Source: a virus (Duplodnaviria > Caudoviricetes). From it: a DNA stretch of 64,000 bases. The stretch lies in IMG/VR virus record IMGVR_UViG_3300022666_000111; one strand, written 5' to 3'. Made by a program: the position numbers and the translations under genes. The notes below the pieces were generated by a model. The model was given only the letters and a program-made list of their open reading frames with translations. It was not told the origin of the DNA and searched no databases. Below, piece by piece: positions 2,441 to 47,368 of the stretch; the stretch's first letter is position 1; each line of letters opens with the position of its first letter.

Positions 2441-2647
2441 ATGACGATCGAGGGGTACGTTCCGATGTCAACCGAAGAGCGAGACGCGGCAATGGCGCTC
2501 GCACCATCCCGCCCCGCTGCCAAACGGTGGCTTGAAGCCCACAAGGGACACGAGACGCGGATTGCGAGGGTTGAGAACTACCTCAACCGAGGGGTCTACG
2601 TCACGTTTCGGTGCTCTTGCGGATCTACCGAGGACGTCTTGGTTTAG
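2441..2647 (+). CDS. small hypothetical protein
   Basis: Preceded by TTGATG-N13-TGCATA-N8-ATG. Confidence 0.6.
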   Translation: MTIEGYVPMSTEERDAAMALAPSRPAAKRWLEAHKGHETRIARVENYLNRGVYVTFRCSCGSTEDVLV

Positions 2648-3354
2648 AAGAGGTCCTCGTCCAAGAGGCGATCGAAATAATCCGTGAGGGGTTCCGGCGT
2701 CACTTCAAAGAGGACCCATTCCGCGAAGAACCGCTCATGGTTGAGCTGGATCGCGCTGGAATCGGCTGCAAGAGGGTCATCGTAGGTGACCGTGATGAGG
2801 GGATTCGTAGGGCTATGTAGTATGCCTTCGATGACGCCGGTCAAGCCACCGTTGATTTGACGGACGTGAGCGCCCCCTTGAACCCAGGAGGGTAGCTGCA
2901 TGTTTGGAATCGGGGGTCCAAACATGTTCTCCGCGCCGTTGGGCAAGGTGTCAACGAGAAACGTGTGGCGTCCAACCCCACTGTAGTCGATGTTTCGCCG
3001 AAGCGGTTGGATCACACTGCTGGCGAGGCTCCGTTGGATTTGGACGGCGCCTAGCTGTAGGATGGCCTCCATGGCGCTACGGATGGTGGTCCCTGGGTCA
3101 GGGAGAGGCCGTGGCGGCGCGGGCTCACGGTATTGTAGGCGCTCGATGGCGTTGATCACGTCGCTTCCAAGAAGCGTGTCGAGGGGCTCGGTGTTGTAGC
3201 CGATTTGACGTTGAACCTCAACGCGGAGGTTCAAGCCCACGGGGCTAAGCGTGACGCTGGCGATACCTGGGCGGGCGCGGAGCTGGGCTATAAGCTCCCG
3301 CACGGCTATGCGGGAATCCACGTTGTCGTAGACGAAGACCCAGAAGAGCGGCAT
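2644..3354 (-). CDS. chimeric protein: major-capsid-like segment plus acidic C-terminal tail
   Basis: LASSVIQPLRRNIDYSGVGRHTFLVDTLPNGA resembles a recalled capsid N-terminal region; ends DYFDRLLDEDLF. Confidence 0.65.
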   Translation of the reverse strand: MPLFWVFVYDNVDSRIAVRELIAQLRARPGIASVTLSPVGLNLRVEVQRQIGYNTEPLDTLLGSDVINAIERLQYREPAPPRPLPDPGTTIRSAMEAILQLGAVQIQRSLASSVIQPLRRNIDYSGVGRHTFLVDTLPNGAENMFGPPIPNMQLPSWVQGGAHVRQINGGLTGVIEGILHSPTNPLITVTYDDPLAADSSAIQLNHERFFAEWVLFEVTPEPLTDYFDRLLDEDLF

Positions 3355-4789: not shown

Positions 4790-4844
4790 AAGGGCTCCTT
4801 GATTTACCTTGGTGGTCCTACACCAGGAGGTGTAGAGGAGACCC

Positions 4845-12454: not shown

Positions 12455-12498
12455 GCCGTGTAGCTACACCGAATGGGATGGTGTAGTAGTGGGATCGT

Positions 12499-13581
12499 AT
12501 GCCAGATCCTGCTGATGCCATTGCTGACGCCATCGCCGAGGCTATCTCCGAGCTTGGGGGTGATCCGTCCACAGCTATCGTCACGGACTACCACGTGGAG
12601 TACCCTCCTGGGGGTCCCGTCGTTGTGGAAGCCCCCGTGGAGTACACCGAGACAAGGACTCTCCCAGAGCGGATCTTTTCGATCGGGAGCGAGCTTCCGA
12701 TCGAGCACATCCCGGGGAGGGCCACGGGGACCCTTCAGGTTCAAGGGACGCGGGTTGACTCGCAAGCCTTGGAGCGGCTTCTTGGGGCAGGTGAGCCCGG
12801 CATCCTCCGAGGGATGCCGCAGATCTTCAGCACGATCGATGATGAGGCACACTTCGGGGAGGCCATCCGTGAGGGGCTTGGTGTCAACGAGCCTCCGCCC
12901 AACCGCCCCGGGGAGCCTCCCGAGGGGGCCAACGCCAACGGGGACCTCCTCCCGATCACGTCGTTCACCCGGCAGCCATTGCCGTTGGAAGATCCTACCA
13001 CTGCGCAAATCCGTCGAGAGATCGAGGCGTCTGAGGACGCGGAGATCTTCCGGACCCTTGAAGCCGTGGCTCAAAACGGATTCGACCGTCCAAACTTCGG
13101 CATTGGTGCCAGGGTGCAGCAGATGGTCCGGGATATCGAGGACGCCCGCGTCAACCAGCTCCTGAGCAACATCGATGGGCCTACGCCGAGTTGGGTTGTG
13201 AACCCAGCGGATCCCAACGCCCGAGTGTCGCCGCCAATCCCGCCCCCAATCCGGGCCGAACGCGTCACCATGCCCTTGTTCGAAATAGCCTCCAACCCGT
13301 CGATCCCCCTCACGGCGATCCAGGCGAGGCGTTTCAACTTGATCGACCGTGAGCCTCCGAAGTTCGAGGTAGGTGAGTGGGTCACCTACACACACGGTGA
13401 GGGCTTCATCTACAAGGTCCTCGAGGTTGCTGAGAAGACCGTCACGGTTCAATGCTGGAACGAAGAGGTCTGGGACCTTGTGGGCTTGTTGGTGGTAGTG
13501 CCTCGAGAGGACTGCCACCACTCCCCGGCGCCCGTCAAGAACGTCTGGCAGCGCCTGATGGAAGAAGAGGACCTCTTCTAG
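12499..13581 (+). CDS. mosaic protein: tail-tube-like and capsid-like segments plus acidic tail
   Basis: RVTMPLFEIASNPSIPLTAIQARRFNLIDR; REIEASEDAEIFRTLEAVAQNGFD; ends NVWQRLMEEEDLF. Confidence 0.7.
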   Translation: MPDPADAIADAIAEAISELGGDPSTAIVTDYHVEYPPGGPVVVEAPVEYTETRTLPERIFSIGSELPIEHIPGRATGTLQVQGTRVDSQALERLLGAGEPGILRGMPQIFSTIDDEAHFGEAIREGLGVNEPPPNRPGEPPEGANANGDLLPITSFTRQPLPLEDPTTAQIRREIEASEDAEIFRTLEAVAQNGFDRPNFGIGARVQQMVRDIEDARVNQLLSNIDGPTPSWVVNPADPNARVSPPIPPPIRAERVTMPLFEIASNPSIPLTAIQARRFNLIDREPPKFEVGEWVTYTHGEGFIYKVLEVAEKTVTVQCWNEEVWDLVGLLVVVPREDCHHSPAPVKNVWQRLMEEEDLF

Positions 13582-15770: not shown

Positions 15771-18098
15771 TCAGATCTTGACCTCGACCTCACGGAGGGT
15801 AGCGGTGCAGGTGAGCTTCTGACCGTCGGCCGTGATGTCCAAGGTGTTCTCGTCAAGCGTCGCGAATTCGGTGAACCAAATCTGACCGACGATGATGGCG
15901 AACTTGATCTTGGCCATCTCCGAGATGAGCTTGCGCACCTCGGTGGTCGCGGCCTTGACCTCACCGTCGATCCAGGCTTCGAAGAGCTTGTCCTGGTTCG
16001 CGGCATTGACGTAGACGTCCGAGGCAAGGAAGCCTTCGACCTTCTCGATGATCGGCTTCATGAGGGCGGCGCCCGCGTTGAGCTTGCCCTTGGCTGCCTG
16101 CTTCTTGAACTCGTTCATGCTCGGGATCGCGGAGAGGCCCTTGATCGCGAGCTTCAGCTCCTTCGCCATGTACACGTCGGTCGCCTCGGCTTGGACCTGC
16201 TTGGGGGAGAAGCCGCTGTAGTCCGTGAAGCCCTGCTCCTTGAGCCATGCGGCGGCGTCGACGCCATAGAGGACCTCGTAGCCTTCGGAGGTGCGGGGGA
16301 ACCGCTCCTTCTTGACGGCGTTGAGGACCTTCTGGGCCGCGCGGGCCTTCGTCAAGGCGTATTCCTTCTCGAAGAGCGCCTTGGCGGAGCAAGCCTTGAC
16401 CATGTTCCGGTTGATGATCGGCATCTCGGTCAAGTCGAACACGAGGTCGACGGGCTTGCTGGGGTCGGTGTACCAGCTCTGGTCGAGCGTTTCGCCTTTG
16501 GGCGTGTGGGCGCAGGTGGGGCTCATACCAGCGTCGCGGAGCTTCTTGATCGTCGCCGGGGTGACGCGGACCGGGAGCGCCTTGACGTTCACGAGCCCAT
16601 CCTTGACGATCGCGTAGTTGCGGAAGATGAAGGTCGGGAAGCTGCGGGGCAGCTTGGGGAATTCACCGTCCTTGACTCGCCCGGAGATATCCACCGTGCC
16701 GGTCTTGCGGACCAACACGCTGATGTTGGGCTTTTCCTCGTTGTAGGTGAGGTTCGAAATGGCGTAGCCGGAACCGTCACCCTTGTCTTCGACGAACTTG
16801 AGTGCGTCTTGCTTGCTCGAGGTGATGGCGGCGATTTCCTGGGCCAGGGAGGCGATCTTCTTGACGTCCTTGGTCTTGCCCATCTCCTCGGTGAGCTTGT
16901 TGACCTTCTCCTGCTCCTCGGCGGAAAGGTTCTCGGAGGCGTCAACCCTCGCCCGGCTGATCCGGTTGTACTTGAACTCAGGGTGGTCCAAGAGCAAGCA
17001 GGCGTCGTCGTCGGCGAGGATCTCCAAGAGCTGGAGGACCGTGAAGGCGTCGTCCGGGGGAACCTGGCTGGGATCGAAGCCCAGGGTCAGGCGCCCTTTG
17101 GGGTCGAACGCGGCGGCCTTAGCGCGCTCCATGAAGGCGCTGTAGCGTTGCTTGCCGAAGCACCCGCCGAATTCCTTGATGAAGCTGACGTCGCCGGTTG
17201 CCTTGAGCAAGGGGAGGACAACCTCGGGCTTCATGCGGACGCTGAAGAGGCTGATCGCGGCGTAGAGGGCCGGGATGGGGTCAGCCATCTTGCCGCTCGT
17301 CTCGGTCGGGGTGAGGTACAGGACCTCCGACACGCTTTCGGGGACCAGGATCTTGCCGTCCTCGACCGTGAAGGTCAGGAGGTCGTCGCCAGCCATAGCG
17401 AAAGCGAACCCGCCGATGACGTCGCCCTTGATGTTGACTTCGACCTTCTTGACGCCAGCGATCTTGCGCTGCATGGCGGCCTCGAAGGCGGGCTGGTAGG
17501 TGTCGAAGTGCTCGGCGAAGATGTGGGCGCCACCGGCCTTCTCTGCCATCGCGGCCAAAAGGGGGCGGTCGGCGTAGTAGCCGTACTCAACGATCGTCGT
17601 TGCGGCAAGCCCACCGGCTGCCTTCTCGATCGCCTTGAGGATCTCGGCGCGGCTCCATTGGTTGTCACATCCATCGCTCATGAAGAAGAGGCTGAAGGCC
17701 GTTCCGGGGCGCTTCTTGCCAATGCGGTCGACCAGCTTGGCGGCCTCCTCGAGGGGCTCCTTGAATCCGGTCAAGCACACCGGCTTGAGCCAGCGATCGA
17801 TCGCCTGGTTGACGGCGGAAAGGTCCGCGAGGGTCGCCACCGGCTCGGCCTCAAGCAGGGTCCCGAATTGCCCGCGCCCGGAGAACCACACGATGCTGAT
17901 CGTGTCCTGGTCGCCGAGGAGCTTGGGGAGCTTCTTCTTGAGCTGTTCGCGAATCTTTGGCAACTCACCGTACATCGAGCCCGAGCAGTCAATCACGACG
18001 ATGTGGTTGGTCGGGGGCGGCTTGACGGTGGTAGCGGGCTTGGTGGAAAGCAGAACCGAGGCAAGAAACAGAGAGGCGGTGATGGGGTAGCTTGACAT
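15771..18098 (-). CDS. large vWA (MIDAS) domain protein
   Basis: VVIDCSGSM, T, FMSDG; CAGGAG SD before ATG 18098; strong GC3 bias. Confidence 0.85.
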   Translation of the reverse strand: MSSYPITASLFLASVLLSTKPATTVKPPPTNHIVVIDCSGSMYGELPKIREQLKKKLPKLLGDQDTISIVWFSGRGQFGTLLEAEPVATLADLSAVNQAIDRWLKPVCLTGFKEPLEEAAKLVDRIGKKRPGTAFSLFFMSDGCDNQWSRAEILKAIEKAAGGLAATTIVEYGYYADRPLLAAMAEKAGGAHIFAEHFDTYQPAFEAAMQRKIAGVKKVEVNIKGDVIGGFAFAMAGDDLLTFTVEDGKILVPESVSEVLYLTPTETSGKMADPIPALYAAISLFSVRMKPEVVLPLLKATGDVSFIKEFGGCFGKQRYSAFMERAKAAAFDPKGRLTLGFDPSQVPPDDAFTVLQLLEILADDDACLLLDHPEFKYNRISRARVDASENLSAEEQEKVNKLTEEMGKTKDVKKIASLAQEIAAITSSKQDALKFVEDKGDGSGYAISNLTYNEEKPNISVLVRKTGTVDISGRVKDGEFPKLPRSFPTFIFRNYAIVKDGLVNVKALPVRVTPATIKKLRDAGMSPTCAHTPKGETLDQSWYTDPSKPVDLVFDLTEMPIINRNMVKACSAKALFEKEYALTKARAAQKVLNAVKKERFPRTSEGYEVLYGVDAAAWLKEQGFTDYSGFSPKQVQAEATDVYMAKELKLAIKGLSAIPSMNEFKKQAAKGKLNAGAALMKPIIEKVEGFLASDVYVNAANQDKLFEAWIDGEVKAATTEVRKLISEMAKIKFAIIVGQIWFTEFATLDENTLDITADGQKLTCTATLREVEVKI

Positions 18099-18204
18099 GG
18101 TGTTCTCCTGACGGCAAAGGCGCAACAAGGTTGGTTTTGGGTGGTGGGATGCGCCACACGCCGTTCCCTCCTACTACACCGGACGGTGGCGCCGATCAAT
18201 GAAA

Positions 18205-18440: not shown

Positions 18441-18459
18441 CTACACCAGGCTGGTGTAG
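18441..18459. promoter_or_regulatory. back-to-back GGTGTAG motifs (perfect inverted repeat) serving divergent genes
   Basis: CTACACCAG-G-CTGGTGTAG, each half 8 nt from an ATG; similar pairs at 4818-4835, 12464-12486, 46782-46800. Confidence 0.7.
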
Positions 18460-19809: not shown

Positions 19810-20071
19810 GATCGTCCACGACGGTCACACGGTAATCCATGACGGACGTCCCGCAGAGGATGTAGCACAAGAAGTACGCGGCTGTATGCCCATGTAGGAC
19901 ACTCACAAAGCCTTGTGGGTACTTCTGCGGCTCAAGGACGACACGGAGAGGTCCTCCTGCTCCGACGATGGCTGGGATCTTTCCTCGGAGGACCTTGAGG
20001 ACGGTGTCTGCAACGTCCGTGTACGACGTGACCTCGGTGACCTTCTCGTCACAATGGTAGATGTGGATCAT
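19775..20071 (-). CDS. hypothetical protein
   Basis: ATGA coupling. Confidence 0.45.
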   Translation of the reverse strand: MIHIYHCDEKVTEVTSYTDVADTVLKVLRGKIPAIVGAGGPLRVVLEPQKYPQGFVSVLHGHTAAYFLCYILCGTSVMDYRVTVVDDLTGAPSPSPSP

Positions 20072-20439
20072 GGATGCGCCTTAAGGGGCTTGAGGTCAAG
20101 GGCGACGGTTCGAGCGACCTTTTCGGGGACCTCATCGGTGTCGTTGCTGATTCGAAGCTCGGGGGTGTGGCTTGGGTAGTAATAGCCCGGGGGGATAGCG
20201 CGGGAGACGTAGACGTGCGGTCCGAGGCGATCCATGAAGCGGATTGTGCCCATGAAACCCGCTTGGAGGAAGTCCACGAGGGTATTGGGCTCGTAGTCGT
20301 CCTTCGTCGCGTTCTTGATGAAGAGCTGGTAGTCCTTGGGGGAGATCGTGACGGGGAGCGCCTCGAGGTAGAAGAGAGTGTCAACGATCTCCTTCCAAGT
20401 GGCGGGCATGGTCCCCGTCTCCGGAGTGTCGTGCTGCAT
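20068..20439 (-). CDS. major-capsid C-terminal-half-like small protein
   Basis: ISPKDYQLFIK...FLQAGFMGTI....HVYVSRAIPPGYYY; similar to 42227..42445. Confidence 0.55.
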   Translation of the reverse strand: MQHDTPETGTMPATWKEIVDTLFYLEALPVTISPKDYQLFIKNATKDDYEPNTLVDFLQAGFMGTIRFMDRLGPHVYVSRAIPPGYYYPSHTPELRISNDTDEVPEKVARTVALDLKPLKAHP

Positions 20440-40242: not shown

Positions 40243-41625
40243 ATGGAATACTTCAGATCTCGCCGGATGACAGCGTCTCAGTGGTTGGGACGTGATCCCG
40301 TTATGAACCAAGGGGAGCTTGGGTTCGAGACAGACACAGATAGGGCAAAAATCGGAGATGGCACCACCAAGTGGACCGGCTTGCCCTACATGGATGCTCA
40401 AACAACAAGCTCGACTCGAACGCGGCTTGAATACGGGACGCTTCGTCTTACTGAGGCCACGAAGACATCTGTTACCCAATTGGGCTTTTCGGGTATCGTG
40501 GTGAAACAACACCCTGACCTGATGGGTTTGAACTTCGATCGTTACCGTAGATGCTCGTGGGACATCTACGAAATCGGGGGGAACAGTTGGAGCGGGTTGA
40601 GCTTCTCGACAGAAAGTGCGCTATACGCGTTTCTGGCCGCCAATGCTGCCCAGACTGGGGGGTACTACTCACGCAACATCATGGCGACTGTGTATGACAC
40701 GGTGGACGCTACCATTCCTGTCGTCAACAAGATGTGGGGGATCAACACGTTCTATTCCATGCTCAAAGGCCGGAAACGGTACAATGACAACCGTCAGACT
40801 TTGGGTAGGGATCTGATCAACTGGCCTCAGTTTGAAGACTGGTTCCAGGCTGTATGCAGCCGAGGTCTCGGCCTCCCCGCAGGAGCTTATGCCGTTAACA
40901 GGGAACGTGCGCTGTGGTTGACGCGGAGTAATCGCACAAGGTACGGCATGCCAACAGAGGGCATTACGCTAAACAGCCTTAGCACTACTGGGGACCGTAT
41001 GGTGTACAACTCCGCGACGGCCACATGGGTCCCAATGTCAGGGGGGGACTTCCAGCATTGGGAAGCACCACCAACAGGGTATGGAAAAGTCTTTGCAACG
41101 ATCTGCGAGAACAACAGGGCGGCGTGGGAATTTGAGACCGCTTATACGGGCATCGTGCGCAGTTTACTTGCTTACGGAGCCAGCTCGATGTCCATGATCT
41201 GTCTCTACAGGTTGCACGGCATCAGCGGCGGAAACAGCACACACAACGCAATTCTGGTGAAGCCGGTTGGGATAGACCGCGTAGGCATCAACTGGTACGA
41301 TCCGGCGCAGTACACACTGTATGCACTACATGAGTGCCCAAACGAAACACCACGAATTCGGCCGATCACAGGGATACCGGCGAAACACATAAGCCAAGGC
41401 AACGACTTGATCTGGCTCAACAAGTCTGTCTGGACACCTTTTGAGGATGGTCGAAAGCCTACGGTCACAAGCAGGATGAAATCCCGTCTATTCCCTACGA
41501 CCAGGTTCTTCCTACGGGACAACGCGACACACAGGATCTCGATTCCAAGCCAAATGTGTGTCAAAATGACACTCAACGCCAAAGACGCGATGGTCAAATG
41601 GGGCATCTTCCCCGCAGGTAGGTGA
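40243..41625 (+). CDS. tail fibre / receptor-binding protein with Mtd_N-like N-terminus
   Basis: RR.TASQW...DPV..QGELGFETDT..AKIGDG.T.W..LPY. Confidence 0.75.
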   Translation: MEYFRSRRMTASQWLGRDPVMNQGELGFETDTDRAKIGDGTTKWTGLPYMDAQTTSSTRTRLEYGTLRLTEATKTSVTQLGFSGIVVKQHPDLMGLNFDRYRRCSWDIYEIGGNSWSGLSFSTESALYAFLAANAAQTGGYYSRNIMATVYDTVDATIPVVNKMWGINTFYSMLKGRKRYNDNRQTLGRDLINWPQFEDWFQAVCSRGLGLPAGAYAVNRERALWLTRSNRTRYGMPTEGITLNSLSTTGDRMVYNSATATWVPMSGGDFQHWEAPPTGYGKVFATICENNRAAWEFETAYTGIVRSLLAYGASSMSMICLYRLHGISGGNSTHNAILVKPVGIDRVGINWYDPAQYTLYALHECPNETPRIRPITGIPAKHISQGNDLIWLNKSVWTPFEDGRKPTVTSRMKSRLFPTTRFFLRDNATHRISIPSQMCVKMTLNAKDAMVKWGIFPAGR

Positions 41626-42140: not shown

Positions 42141-42230
42141 CCAGCCCATCTTGGAGTGCTGGTCCTTAGTGCAGCCACTTTTGGAGTGTTGAGCCTGTCG
42201 CCAGCCACTTTTGGAGTGTTGGCCCTTACT
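42141..42230. repeat. three 30-bp-period repeats with CAGCCACTTTTGGAGTGTT core
   Basis: Read directly. Confidence 0.85.
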
Positions 42231-42445
42231 TCGCTTGCGTTCGAAAGTTCTGCCGCGATATCGTGGACTTCGTGACCGACCGGGAGACCCTCAAGAAGGG
42301 GATCTACGCGCACCTCTGGAACGCCGAGATCCGTTGCCGCAAGGACATCCCCGCAGGTTACCTTGTGCGCATCGGTGAGGATGAGGGCAATCGGGATCTC
42401 CGCGCGGCTTGGAAGCCCTCGCGAAAGAAGCTCTACCGCTACTAA
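42227..42445 (+). pseudogene. major-capsid-like fragment (possible GTG start at 42263)
   Basis: VRKFCRDIVDFVTDRETLKKGIYAHLWNAEIRCRKDIPAGY; similarity extends upstream of the only start codon. Confidence 0.6.
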
Positions 42446-45075: not shown

Positions 45076-45712
45076 CTTCCTCCCAACGATCCGCCCGCCT
45101 CAACGCGTCTACCAGGACACGGTTGAAAACGTCCGCGCATACATCGGCCAAGGCGGGGCGGTTGGGATCCCCGTCTACGACATAGACTTCGAGGGCCACG
45201 ACCTCGTGTGTATCCTTGCGCTCAAGGCCCAAGAGGCCGTCTCGAAAGAAACGCCCCTAAGCGAAGAGATCCAGCGCCTCGTCACAAGCCTCTTCCAAGA
45301 CCGGGCTCGCTTGATCGTCAAGCCTGGGCAAAGGCGGCGCGTTTATGACGAGGATGGCGATATCCATTCGAACGCCGTCCCATACTACTCCTCTGACGAC
45401 GCCGCAGAGGACATGATGGCGGCCATTCGAGCGGAGTCACACTGGAGGGACGTCCTCGACGAGATCTACCGCGTCGCAAGCGAGGCCCTCGGCGGACGCA
45501 AGCTCTTCTTCGCCTTCGTGGACATCCTCCAATTCGACATTGACGGATTGGAACGCCAGCTCACCAAACTAGGCCACCGTCAGGTTGAATTCGCGATCAT
45601 CGTAGACAACAACACGGACGGATTCACGATTCCGAAGGCTCCGCCCTTGCCGCCACCGCCGCCGAAGCCTCCAGAGGACTTCTTCGAGCACCTCGAGGTA
45701 GATTGGATTTAA
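45062..45712 (+). CDS. hypothetical protein with acidic tail, possibly capsid-derived
   Basis: IPVYDID..RLVTSLFQ; ends PKPPEDFFEHLEVDWI. Confidence 0.6.
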   Translation: MPSLDFLPTIRPPQRVYQDTVENVRAYIGQGGAVGIPVYDIDFEGHDLVCILALKAQEAVSKETPLSEEIQRLVTSLFQDRARLIVKPGQRRRVYDEDGDIHSNAVPYYSSDDAAEDMMAAIRAESHWRDVLDEIYRVASEALGGRKLFFAFVDILQFDIDGLERQLTKLGHRQVEFAIIVDNNTDGFTIPKAPPLPPPPPKPPEDFFEHLEVDWI

Positions 45713-45714
45713 CC

Positions 45715-46086
45715 ATGCGACGTCTCATCCCCATTCTCATCGCCCTTTGCTCCTGCGGAAACTACGCCAAGATCGATGGAGGCCGTGTAGGTGAGGGTAA
45801 GCTGGGCGGCATTCGTCCGGGGCCGTATGACCCTGATGTTGTCGTTGTTGGCGCGCACGTATCCCTTGCGGCGGGGGACGTGCCTTGTGACGACGCGGAT
45901 CCGAACTACGTCACAACGGACGTCAAAGGGGAGTACGAGTACCTCCACGTAGATTCAGGGTGCAGCGAGGACCCGGATCGCTACACGTTCTGCGTGATTC
46001 ACCCTGACTACGAGACGTTCCGAGAGGTCTTGATGCACCGCCCGGTAGGGCCGAACATCAACGTGGAGCTGGTCAGGAAGCCTTGA
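45715..46086 (+). CDS. putative lipoprotein
   Basis: MRRLIPILIALCSC; TTDVKGEY..HPDY. Confidence 0.6.
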   Translation: MRRLIPILIALCSCGNYAKIDGGRVGEGKLGGIRPGPYDPDVVVVGAHVSLAAGDVPCDDADPNYVTTDVKGEYEYLHVDSGCSEDPDRYTFCVIHPDYETFREVLMHRPVGPNINVELVRKP

Positions 46087-46288
46087 AACCGCAGATCGGG
46101 CAAGTGTCTTTGAACCCGCTGCGGCCAAGGAAGGGATGGCAGACCCGGTGACATAGGGGCTCAGAGGCTCGGCGATGCTGCTCCTTTCGGATGACATCGT
46201 GCAAGGACGCCGCTAGGCGCGTCCTCCCCTCGGCTGAGCTGAGCGCGTCTTTGACAAGCTCGTCGGGACTTGGGGGTTTATCGGTCAT
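46073..46288 (-). CDS. capsid N-terminal-helix-like peptide plus zinc ribbon
   Basis: LVKDALSSAEGRTRLAASL; CHRVC..CPICG. Confidence 0.55.
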   Translation of the reverse strand: MTDKPPSPDELVKDALSSAEGRTRLAASLHDVIRKEQHRRASEPLCHRVCHPFLGRSGFKDTCPICGFKAS

Positions 46289-46773
46289 GACAGCCTCACG
46301 CAAGCAACGTTACCAAAGACGAAGGCTATGCCATCGCGCCCTTCGGACCAGGGGTTCATCCCGAGGAATTCTGGCTCCGGAAGACCTACAATGACACCAT
46401 CGGGGAAGGCGTACTCCGGCGCAATGACTACACGCGCCGTGGTAGGGGGCAGCACCGTCTCTCCGGAGACATAGAGCGTCGTGATCCGGAGATCCTGAAC
46501 CTGGCTCTCGAGCGCGTCCATGAGCGTCCCTTCAAACCCAGGGGGCAGTACCGTCGTGGCCCGTTGGAAAGCTGGAGTGGCCTTGACCATCTCGTTGAAG
46601 ATTCGGTTGAAGTCAAGGTTGGCGTGCAGTGTGATTGGATGCCGTCCGTCTCGGATCACCATGTGGATAGCATCCGCATCCATCCCAAGGATGTAGATGG
46701 GTTTGTCGAAGTCATAGTAGACGGCGCACAGGTCGGGAACGTGGTCCCTTGTGAGGAGTTCGCGGTAGTCCAT
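46285..46773 (-). CDS. miniaturised major-capsid-like protein (162 aa)
   Basis: DY...YYDFD..ILG.DA; LMDALE..DLRITTLYVS; PDG...LPEPEFLG; GGTGTAG-N8-ATG. Confidence 0.6.
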   Translation of the reverse strand: MDYRELLTRDHVPDLCAVYYDFDKPIYILGMDADAIHMVIRDGRHPITLHANLDFNRIFNEMVKATPAFQRATTVLPPGFEGTLMDALESQVQDLRITTLYVSGETVLPPTTARVVIAPEYAFPDGVIVGLPEPEFLGMNPWSEGRDGIAFVFGNVACVRLS

Positions 46774-46808
46774 AGGGTACACTACACCAGGGCGGTGTAG
46801 ACGCCCTC

Positions 46809-47165
46809 ATGACTGTATCCGTTCGCACCCACCCCGACGTTACGCAGTTCCGATTCCCTAATGACCCGCATCTCGACGAGCTACACGACGCCGAGACCGA
46901 ACGATCTGCGGTCAATTCCAATTGGTGGTCGCAACTCCTCCAGACGTTACTTGTCCTGGCCCTCGTAGGGCTGGCCTCTTGGAATGGGGCAAGTGACCGC
47001 GCCATCCTACGAACCGCGCTGCTTTGTTGGATGGGGCAGCTCATCGGCGTGCTCATTCGTCGCACGTTGGTCTACAGGAGGTACGCTAAGGCCCGCGCTA
47101 CCTGGATCGAAGAGGTCCGACGTGACCCAACGTGGACGCCGTCTGACACGGACAAGCCGGTGTAG
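46809..47165 (+). CDS. two-TM membrane protein
   Basis: GGTGTAG-N8-ATG. Confidence 0.65.
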   Translation: MTVSVRTHPDVTQFRFPNDPHLDELHDAETERSAVNSNWWSQLLQTLLVLALVGLASWNGASDRAILRTALLCWMGQLIGVLIRRTLVYRRYAKARATWIEEVRRDPTWTPSDTDKPV

Positions 47166-47173
47166 GGGTTACC

Positions 47174-47368
47174 ATGGCAATCGTCGAGACATACTACCGG
47201 ATTCGGATCAAGGACAAGTGGCTGGACGATCTTGGGGGTGCTTGTGACTATCGCGCCCATGCAGCCATCTTTCAGACGCTGGAGGGTGCCAAGGTTGGTC
47301 GGTTCCGCGCCCGCAAGCACTTCCCCCGCAAGGCTGTCAAGATCATCCGAGTCAACGTTTACGGTTGA
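47174..47368 (+). CDS. small hypothetical protein
   Basis: GGTGTAG-N8-ATG. Confidence 0.6.
   Translation: MAIVETYYRIRIKDKWLDDLGGACDYRAHAAIFQTLEGAKVGRFRARKHFPRKAVKIIRVNVYG

Follow-up and report, generated by a model that had tools for sequence, protein, structure and literature searches.

A coupled gene pair of an uncultured huge phage that probably derives from the major capsid protein and may act as its mimic

Paralogs of capsid proteins and truncated, capsid-derived antagonists are already known kinds of genes. The vertex protein gp24 of phage T4 is a paralog of gp23, and in animals Fv1, enJS56A1 and RTL8, the last of which is reported to act against PEG10, are truncated antagonists derived from capsid proteins. 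CpmB of SaPI1 works by scaffold mimicry. Bacterial immunity against phages is very commonly triggered by capsid proteins, which rank among its most frequent triggers, and peptide triggers such as T4 Gol illustrate that a fragment of a capsid may switch a sensor on instead of inhibiting it. In HK97-fold shells the N-arm, the base of the E-loop and a P-domain strand make contacts between subunits or with the scaffold, as known from P22 and 80alpha. The closest described protein to the genes reported here is gp27, the major capsid protein (MCP) of Bacillus phage G (HK97 fold, PDB 6WKK; PF25209/PF05065). MCPs of the gp27 type are 282-290 aa long and consist of one chain. In the literature searched, no description was found of phage genes made of MCP fragments, of a split, permuted or condensed MCP copy, or of a decoy made of capsid pieces, and capsid pieces are unmentioned in the phage G genome paper. 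Likewise, no description was found of a phage countering capsid-triggered immunity, or tuning its assembly, with its own capsid fragments. What is added here is statistical support for a condensed copy of the MCP body, a breakpoint common to two genes, a model of their origin by tandem duplication, and the contrast with phage G.

We analysed a stretch of 64,000 nucleotides (IMG/VR record IMGVR_UViG_3300022666_000111; hereafter the window), which is part of the genome of a huge uncultured phage and also encodes tail-fibre, RCC1-repeat, VWA and AAA genes. The largest contig carrying the two genes of interest has 341,626 bp. The original prediction, a pair of open reading frames (ORFs) coupled by an ATGA, was borne out. 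On the minus strand P0001 (46285..46773; 162 aa, beginning with M-D-Y and ending with VRLS) and P0002 (46073..46288; 71 aa, ending with FKAS) share an ATGA at 46285..46288, where the stop codon of the former overlaps the start codon of the latter, and a GAGG on the same strand (46294-46297) lies 5 nt ahead of the P0002 ATG. This arrangement suggests translational coupling. For both genes the codon score was higher in the annotated frame than in the five others; P0001 scored 0.337, and P0002 scored a weak 0.051. P0001 is acidic (22 D+E against 12 K+R, net charge -10) and P0002 mildly basic (net +3).

The cassette forms a lone minus-strand unit, divergent from a gene at 46809-47165 and convergent with a lipoprotein-like gene at 45703-46086. 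Its neighbours encode a lipoprotein, small membrane proteins and proteins with no assigned function, and there is no head module among them; in related phages (see below) the MCP gene comes after a Q-rich and an approximately 210-aa head-module gene. Neither a sigma-70-like promoter nor an intrinsic terminator was found at 45500-47300. The lipoprotein-like ORF (45703-46086, plus strand) carries a Cys lipobox-like motif along with a signal peptide, and the 3' ends of this ORF and of P0002 overlap convergently by 14 bp (46073-46086), with no intrinsic terminator between the two genes. The ORF at 46809-47165 encodes a small membrane protein of 118 aa. A wastewater contig (run X5) differed from the window at five positions within 40 nt of this ORF (46847-46886), and as all five were third codon positions, a real gene under purifying selection is supported. 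The adjacent contig, which covers the start of P0001, was identical to the window.

A GGTGTAG box (46782..46788, minus strand) was found 8 nt upstream of the P0001 ATG, and because of this spacing position 46773 is the likely start of the gene, which thus bears the gene-start signal typical of this phage. The heptamer occurs 43 times in the window, as compared to 4.6 expected occurrences, and precedes the ATG by 8-9 nt at about 25 window genes. The genes with known function in this box class are an exonuclease and a polymerase-like fragment. The MCP genes of the relatives have purine-rich Shine-Dalgarno sites and no GGTGTAG box upstream. Such a box might act in translation, as a signal of an unusual kind, or in transcription, as a promoter whose leader is very short. 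The divergent gene at 46809-47165 has its own box (46794-46800, plus strand), which forms an inverted pair with that of P0001. Such inverted repeats (CTACACC-N4-9-GGTGTAG) were observed at four divergent gene pairs (46782-46800, 4818-4835, 12464-12486 and 18441-18459). In the loci of the relatives, GGTGTAG was approximately 3.7-fold enriched (48 occurrences in 181 kb).

The capsid proteins used for comparison were gp27 of phage G, its family and the MCPs of five relatives of the window phage, which were located via a neighbouring phrog_5960 gene, so that all comparisons refer to MCPs of other phages than that of the window. The MCPs of the relatives are 91-96% identical to each other and about 39% identical to gp27, and one of them, taken as a control, scored 31.7 bits on PF05065. 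The AlphaFold2 (AF2) model of a relative's MCP has two helices in the N-arm (residues 4-15 and 18-27), with moderate confidence in that part.

P0002 was claimed to supply the part of the capsid protein upstream of an invariant DY, fused to a Cys motif, and both the piece and the motif were found. Residues 8-37 (46178..46267, minus strand), a predicted pair of helices with the motif EGR..LAAS[LM]...IR, matched residues 9-38 of phage-G-type MCPs (hhalign E 7.9e-5), and P0002 also matched the clade MCP profile (hhalign E 4e-4). When the 981 six-frame ORFs of the window were searched with the MCP HMM, P0002 ranked fourth (13.3 bits, E 0.0016), below the clear capsid pieces at 42170-42442, 12499-13581 and 2644-3354. 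In BLASTP it aligned with an MCP paralog of relative G006 (locus L044) with 13 of 26 residues identical (E 1e-5). The invariant MCP columns covered are kept in five out of six cases, and the N-arm piece stands at the same distance from the N terminus as in the MCP. A linker leads to a CX3C...CX2C motif at residues 46-66 (46091..46153, minus strand), where two Cys pairs, C46-X3-C50 and C63-X2-C66, could form a zinc knuckle or ribbon. All matches of this motif were weak (Nop10 zinc-ribbon, E 0.24; an L37ae-like lead in the ESM Atlas, 0.81), and no Pfam model matched it. Judged from these alignments, P0002 consists of the helix pair of the MCP N-arm at its own N terminus and a small Cys4 motif.

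P0001 gave no match to the MCP HMM among the same 981 ORFs. BLASTP against the MCP returned two colinear pieces (E 0.015 and 0.96), and hhalign aligned 137 columns colinearly at P 0.038 and a probability of 1.4%. Colinearity with deletions was tested by local alignment with cheap gap extension, a gap model that is permissive. In pairwise alignments with individual MCPs, P0001 reached z values of 3.1-5.6 and ranked first among 130 real ORFs of similar length; with P0001 as the query, all five MCPs tested scored above 38 unrelated proteins. Against a position-weighted profile of 27 MCPs the z value was 6.5 and none of 1000 shuffled sequences reached the score. Among 264 real ORFs P0001 was fourth against this profile, with only the proven piece proteins P0005, P0006 and P0002 above it. 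The original prediction that P0001 runs from the DY onwards colinearly, with deletions, was thus confirmed.

The profile alignment covers 138 residues in nine blocks, which place residues 1-141 of P0001 (46351..46773, minus strand) along residues 36-246 of gp27 and its huge-phage homologs, with 34 of the 138 residues identical (25%). The motifs DY, PD..YD.D, DLR and EPEF.G..P are in common, and 12 of the 31 invariant MCP columns are retained. The order of the blocks is identical against the MCP of phage G and that of a relative, two proteins which share about 39% of their residues. P0001 starts on the invariant DY (MCP 37-38), right where the piece in P0002 stops (about MCP 37), and relative to the MCP the order is permuted, since the gene for the body precedes that for the N-arm. 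The C terminus had been described as capsid-like, which applies to the EPEF.G..P motif; for the last 21 residues (142-162), which lie outside every optimal alignment to MCPs, the description is not supported. As read from these alignments, P0001 keeps short conserved MCP motifs in their natural order from the DY to the EPEF.G..P strand, with five long deletions. We consider it very probable, on the evidence of both sets of comparisons, that the two genes are capsid-derived. Deletion-riddled derivatives of known folds can escape BLAST, HMMER and Pfam, and gap-tolerant profile alignment recovers them.

The MCP stretches lacking a counterpart in P0001 are residues 86-90, 105-108, 138-172, 186-195, 209-221 and 247-290. 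Mapped on the MCP model, these deletions remove the tip of the E-loop and roughly one half of the spine helix, as well as two elements of the A-domain (helix 186-193 and strands 214-224) and the three C-terminal strands (247-290). P0001 thereby lacks about 45% of the HK97 fold, and the N-arm is encoded by a separate gene. Neither P0001 nor P0002 reached the cut-off of an HK97 MCP family model (PF25209, PF05065 or phrog_2522). The set of fold elements expected from a single chain (N-arm, E-loop, spine helix, A- and P-domain strands) is incomplete, and the cassette does not lie beside scaffold, decoration or protease genes. By these tests P0001 would not be classed as a capsid protein. As the pair fails on model score, completeness and gene context, a shell or compartment built from P0001 is unlikely. 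The earlier description of a split, shrunken capsid paralog hence fits the data as far as the two pieces meeting at DY are concerned, while the small compartment proposed with it is improbable with so much of the fold absent.

With no homologs available for an alignment, the single-sequence AF2 model of P0001 had a pLDDT of 31.9 and the ESM Atlas model a value of 0.32. In these very low-confidence models only the order of strands (residues 14-51) and helices (55-72 and 84-94) agrees with the mapping on the MCP. P0001 may be largely unfolded, as these models would suggest. ESM features gave Phage_nozzle (PF25675) as a lead for P0001 (0.93). This candidate was rejected, as Pfam gave no match at E<=10, and the approximately 180-aa ESM Atlas clusters behind the lead are fragments of a family of 794 positions.

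Compared with a gp27-type MCP, the cassette divides the protein over two genes of 162 and 71 aa in permuted order, lacks nearly half of the fold, carries an added Cys motif, and has neither a family-model match nor a head module. Like gp27, it has the N-arm, here as residues 8-37 of P0002. With T4 gp24 the cassette shares that a duplicate of the shell protein would be kept in the same genome. In contrast, gp24 is a full-length, foldable HK97 subunit whose gene lies in the head module and which becomes part of the shell, whereas P0001 is a remnant of half the size located elsewhere. In the case of Fv1, enJS56A1, RTL8 and CpmB, a partial copy or mimic competes for the partners of an assembly protein, which by analogy is what we propose for the cassette, although these proteins differ from it in fold and lineage.

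P0001 and P0002 belong to a wider class of genes, defined by a significant match to the MCP profile in an ORF that is not an MCP. The window holds four other such pieces, at 42170-42442 (plus strand; MCP 182-228, 31 bits with the MCP HMM), 2644-3354 (minus; MCP 22-58, 27.5 bits), 12499-13581 (plus; MCP 82-142, 28.4 bits) and 20068-20439 (minus; MCP 175-255, 9.7 bits). Together with P0001 and P0002, these four pieces tile most of the MCP. In each of the five relatives (350-452 kb) a single full MCP is accompanied by up to three, and at least one, further ORFs or parts of ORFs with MCP pieces. Among these are a 303-aa partial MCP paralog (L044:1237-2145, plus strand; MCP 4-185, 132 bits), a 316-aa partial paralog with two tandem copies of MCP 138-234 (L049:1429-2376, minus strand), and a 115-aa condensed N-terminal mini-MCP in relative G008 (L040:1086-1433, minus strand; z 7.9), which directly follows the real MCP gene. 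The piece genes differ from genome to genome in the clade. Phage G and four close kin, which served as a negative control, have the MCP and no pieces, so the habit appears limited to the clade of the window phage.

The other piece genes of the clade, including those at loci L044-L056, are like the cassette in carrying conserved MCP segments in ORFs that are not capsid genes. In most of them, between one and three well-preserved segments are embedded in a larger protein that is otherwise unrelated, whereas the nine faint blocks of P0001 extend over nearly all of the body, and in P0002 the piece is at the very N terminus. An acidic C-terminal tail ending in DLF, found as EDLF on two of the window pieces, is absent from both P0001 and P0002. 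No other case consists of coupled genes with the MCP split between them at a single point, and among the several MCP pieces of this genome the cassette is the most complete and the most unusual in its layout. As two small proteins with the MCP divided at one exact point, it makes a compact test object. Separately, in an IMG/VR contig of 125,545 bp (L026) only residues 137-277 of a phage-G-type MCP were matched. This match is flanked by ORFs resembling LAGLIDADG and GIY-YIG homing endonucleases, and mobile introns or inteins have probably inserted into the capsid gene.

Searches for further copies of P0001 and P0002 returned little. Pfam and PHROG gave no matches at E<=10 for either protein, NCBIfam likewise gave none, and no PDB sequence matched convincingly. 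A word-indexed search of 5.8 billion proteins returned only the two proteins themselves. An exhaustive phmmer search of 1.8 billion representatives with P0001 added a single match (P0010), which was rejected as spurious, being an Ig-repeat protein whose score was summed over 7 repeats. The region had no blastn match in deposited phages, nor did the cassette turn up when metagenome contigs of IMG/VR and JGI were scanned for exact matches and for patterns. Identical protein sequences were called on five contigs for P0001 and on four for P0002 (JGI and Logan), and other studies yielded near-identical short contigs from metagenomes of wastewater and aquatic samples; this recovery indicates that the genes are not an assembly accident. 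No variants were seen in the parts of the cassette covered by metagenome contigs (46212-46536 being uncovered).

In 12 relatives, no gene like P0001 or P0002 was found near the phrog_5960 homolog, and none of the cassette's neighbours was conserved beside it. The cassette sits in a hypervariable accessory region. Searching the whole genomes of the five relatives with P0001 found nothing; P0002 found only N-arm pieces of other paralogs and one 74-aa antisense frame (E 0.009), which was judged spurious. A 164-aa piece protein of G006 (P0130) is not claimed as an ortholog of P0001, its z value being only 3.3 and its BLASTP E value 0.21. The cassette is missing even from relatives whose MCPs are more than 90% identical.

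We infer that the pair originated by partial tandem duplication of the capsid gene, in which the first copy would have lost the N-arm and the second everything except the N-arm. The permuted order, with the body first and the N-arm second, is what a tandem pair would leave behind after such reciprocal losses, and the mini-MCP directly after the MCP gene of G008 offers a precedent for birth by partial tandem duplication. A long divergence would have followed, during which both reading frames were kept open. An open frame of 162 codons at 25% identity to its source would argue against neutral decay, and the retained residues are enriched at the invariant MCP columns (12 of 31 in P0001, five of six in P0002).

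Neither product would then be a shell subunit, yet both would display conserved surfaces of the MCP and could act as competitive mimics for whatever recognises these surfaces. As the partner we favour an immune sensor of the host by which the capsid protein is recognised. The pair would be made early, a timing suggested by its box class, and would act as a decoy that does not activate the sensor. A late or structural role is disfavoured, because the box is shared with the exonuclease and the polymerase-like fragment and is absent before the MCP genes of the relatives. The acidic P0001 and the basic P0002 might associate, the N-arm then binding non-covalently to the remnant of the body. A decoy is preferred since a conserved target and fast-changing mimics look like an arms race: the MCPs of the relatives are 91-96% identical, whereas P0001 and P0002 are without a homolog among 1.8-5.8 billion proteins. 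Against a decoy speak the example of T4 Gol, in which a capsid fragment triggers a sensor, the possibly unfolded state of P0001 and the lack of any such decoy in the papers searched. Our tentative choice is a mimic of the MCP that would most likely compete, as a decoy, for a capsid sensor of the host; this mechanism, suggested by the pattern of conservation, is held with low confidence and is much less certain than the capsid-derived origin. The full version of it, in which a non-covalently split, circularly permuted mini capsid protein is made before the real MCP and serves as a non-activating immune decoy, as one member of a clade-wide scattering of shell pieces, is possible and would have to be regarded as doubtful as a whole. 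If true, it would belong to a broader strategy that has not been described, by which the huge phages of one clade distribute fragments of their own shell protein among accessory genes.

The likeness of P0001 to the MCP might also be accidental, with only the N-arm piece of P0002 being real. The database-scale BLAST, HMMER, Pfam and PHROG searches that miss P0001, the low hhalign probability, the permissive gap model which revealed the likeness and the ESM lead to Phage_nozzle fragments would all fit with this. Accidental blocks are nevertheless hard to reconcile with a score that no shuffled sequence reached, with a rank at the top of 130 and fourth of 264 real ORFs where only proven pieces stand above, or with all five MCPs outranking the unrelated targets. 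The same block order was obtained against MCPs that are themselves distant from each other, P0001 begins exactly where the piece of P0002 ends, and PF25675 does not match it. We thus regard a chance resemblance as very unlikely. A relic is a different matter, since it accepts the capsid origin and denies a capsid-related function: the remnant of a partial capsid-gene duplication would be drifting or reused, for example with P0002 as a small Zn-ribbon regulator. That the pair is an orphan in one phage lineage, that the similarity of P0001 is very low (25%), that its structure predictions are unconfident and that the codon score of P0002 is weak (0.051) are in line with a relic. Both frames are intact despite the deep divergence, however, the start box and the coupling are kept, and the remaining identities concentrate on invariant MCP columns, which makes a relic an unlikely outcome.

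Instead of misleading a sensor, the mimics could have a role in assembly, where P0001 and P0002 would dock on the scaffold or on neighbouring MCPs of the procapsid and serve as Zn-motif cargo, as a cap at special positions or in tuning the assembly of a very large shell. The retained elements (N-arm, base of the E-loop and a P-domain strand) are ones that make contacts between subunits or with the scaffold in HK97-fold shells, and translational coupling suggests a fixed ratio of P0001 to P0002. Against this, the cassette lies far from any head module in the hypervariable accessory region, is absent from relatives with MCPs of more than 90% identity, uses the box signal that MCP genes do not use and lacks about 45% of the fold; we find such a role rather improbable. 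The truncated copies could also interfere with other phages by poisoning the shells of co-infecting kin, as dominant negatives like the truncated Gag-derived restriction factors of animals. The region, with its lipoprotein and membrane-protein neighbours, resembles the accessory 'moron' regions of phages, and RTL8 against PEG10 is a reported eukaryotic precedent. Since the MCPs of the clade are nearly identical, such a poison would also strike the phage's own shell, and we regard this explanation as very unlikely.

Two further genes of the window are of note. The ORF at 40243-41625 (plus strand) encodes a tail-fibre-like protein with an Mtd_N domain (major tropism determinant, N-terminal; E 3.7e-11). 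The ORF at 15771-18128 (minus strand) encodes a 785-aa VWA-domain protein (phrog_2426, 623 bits), with 37% identical homologs in more than 500 deposited phages, most of which are approximately 157 kb in size and belong to Klebsiella or Salmonella, and is one of the few window genes common to cultured phages.
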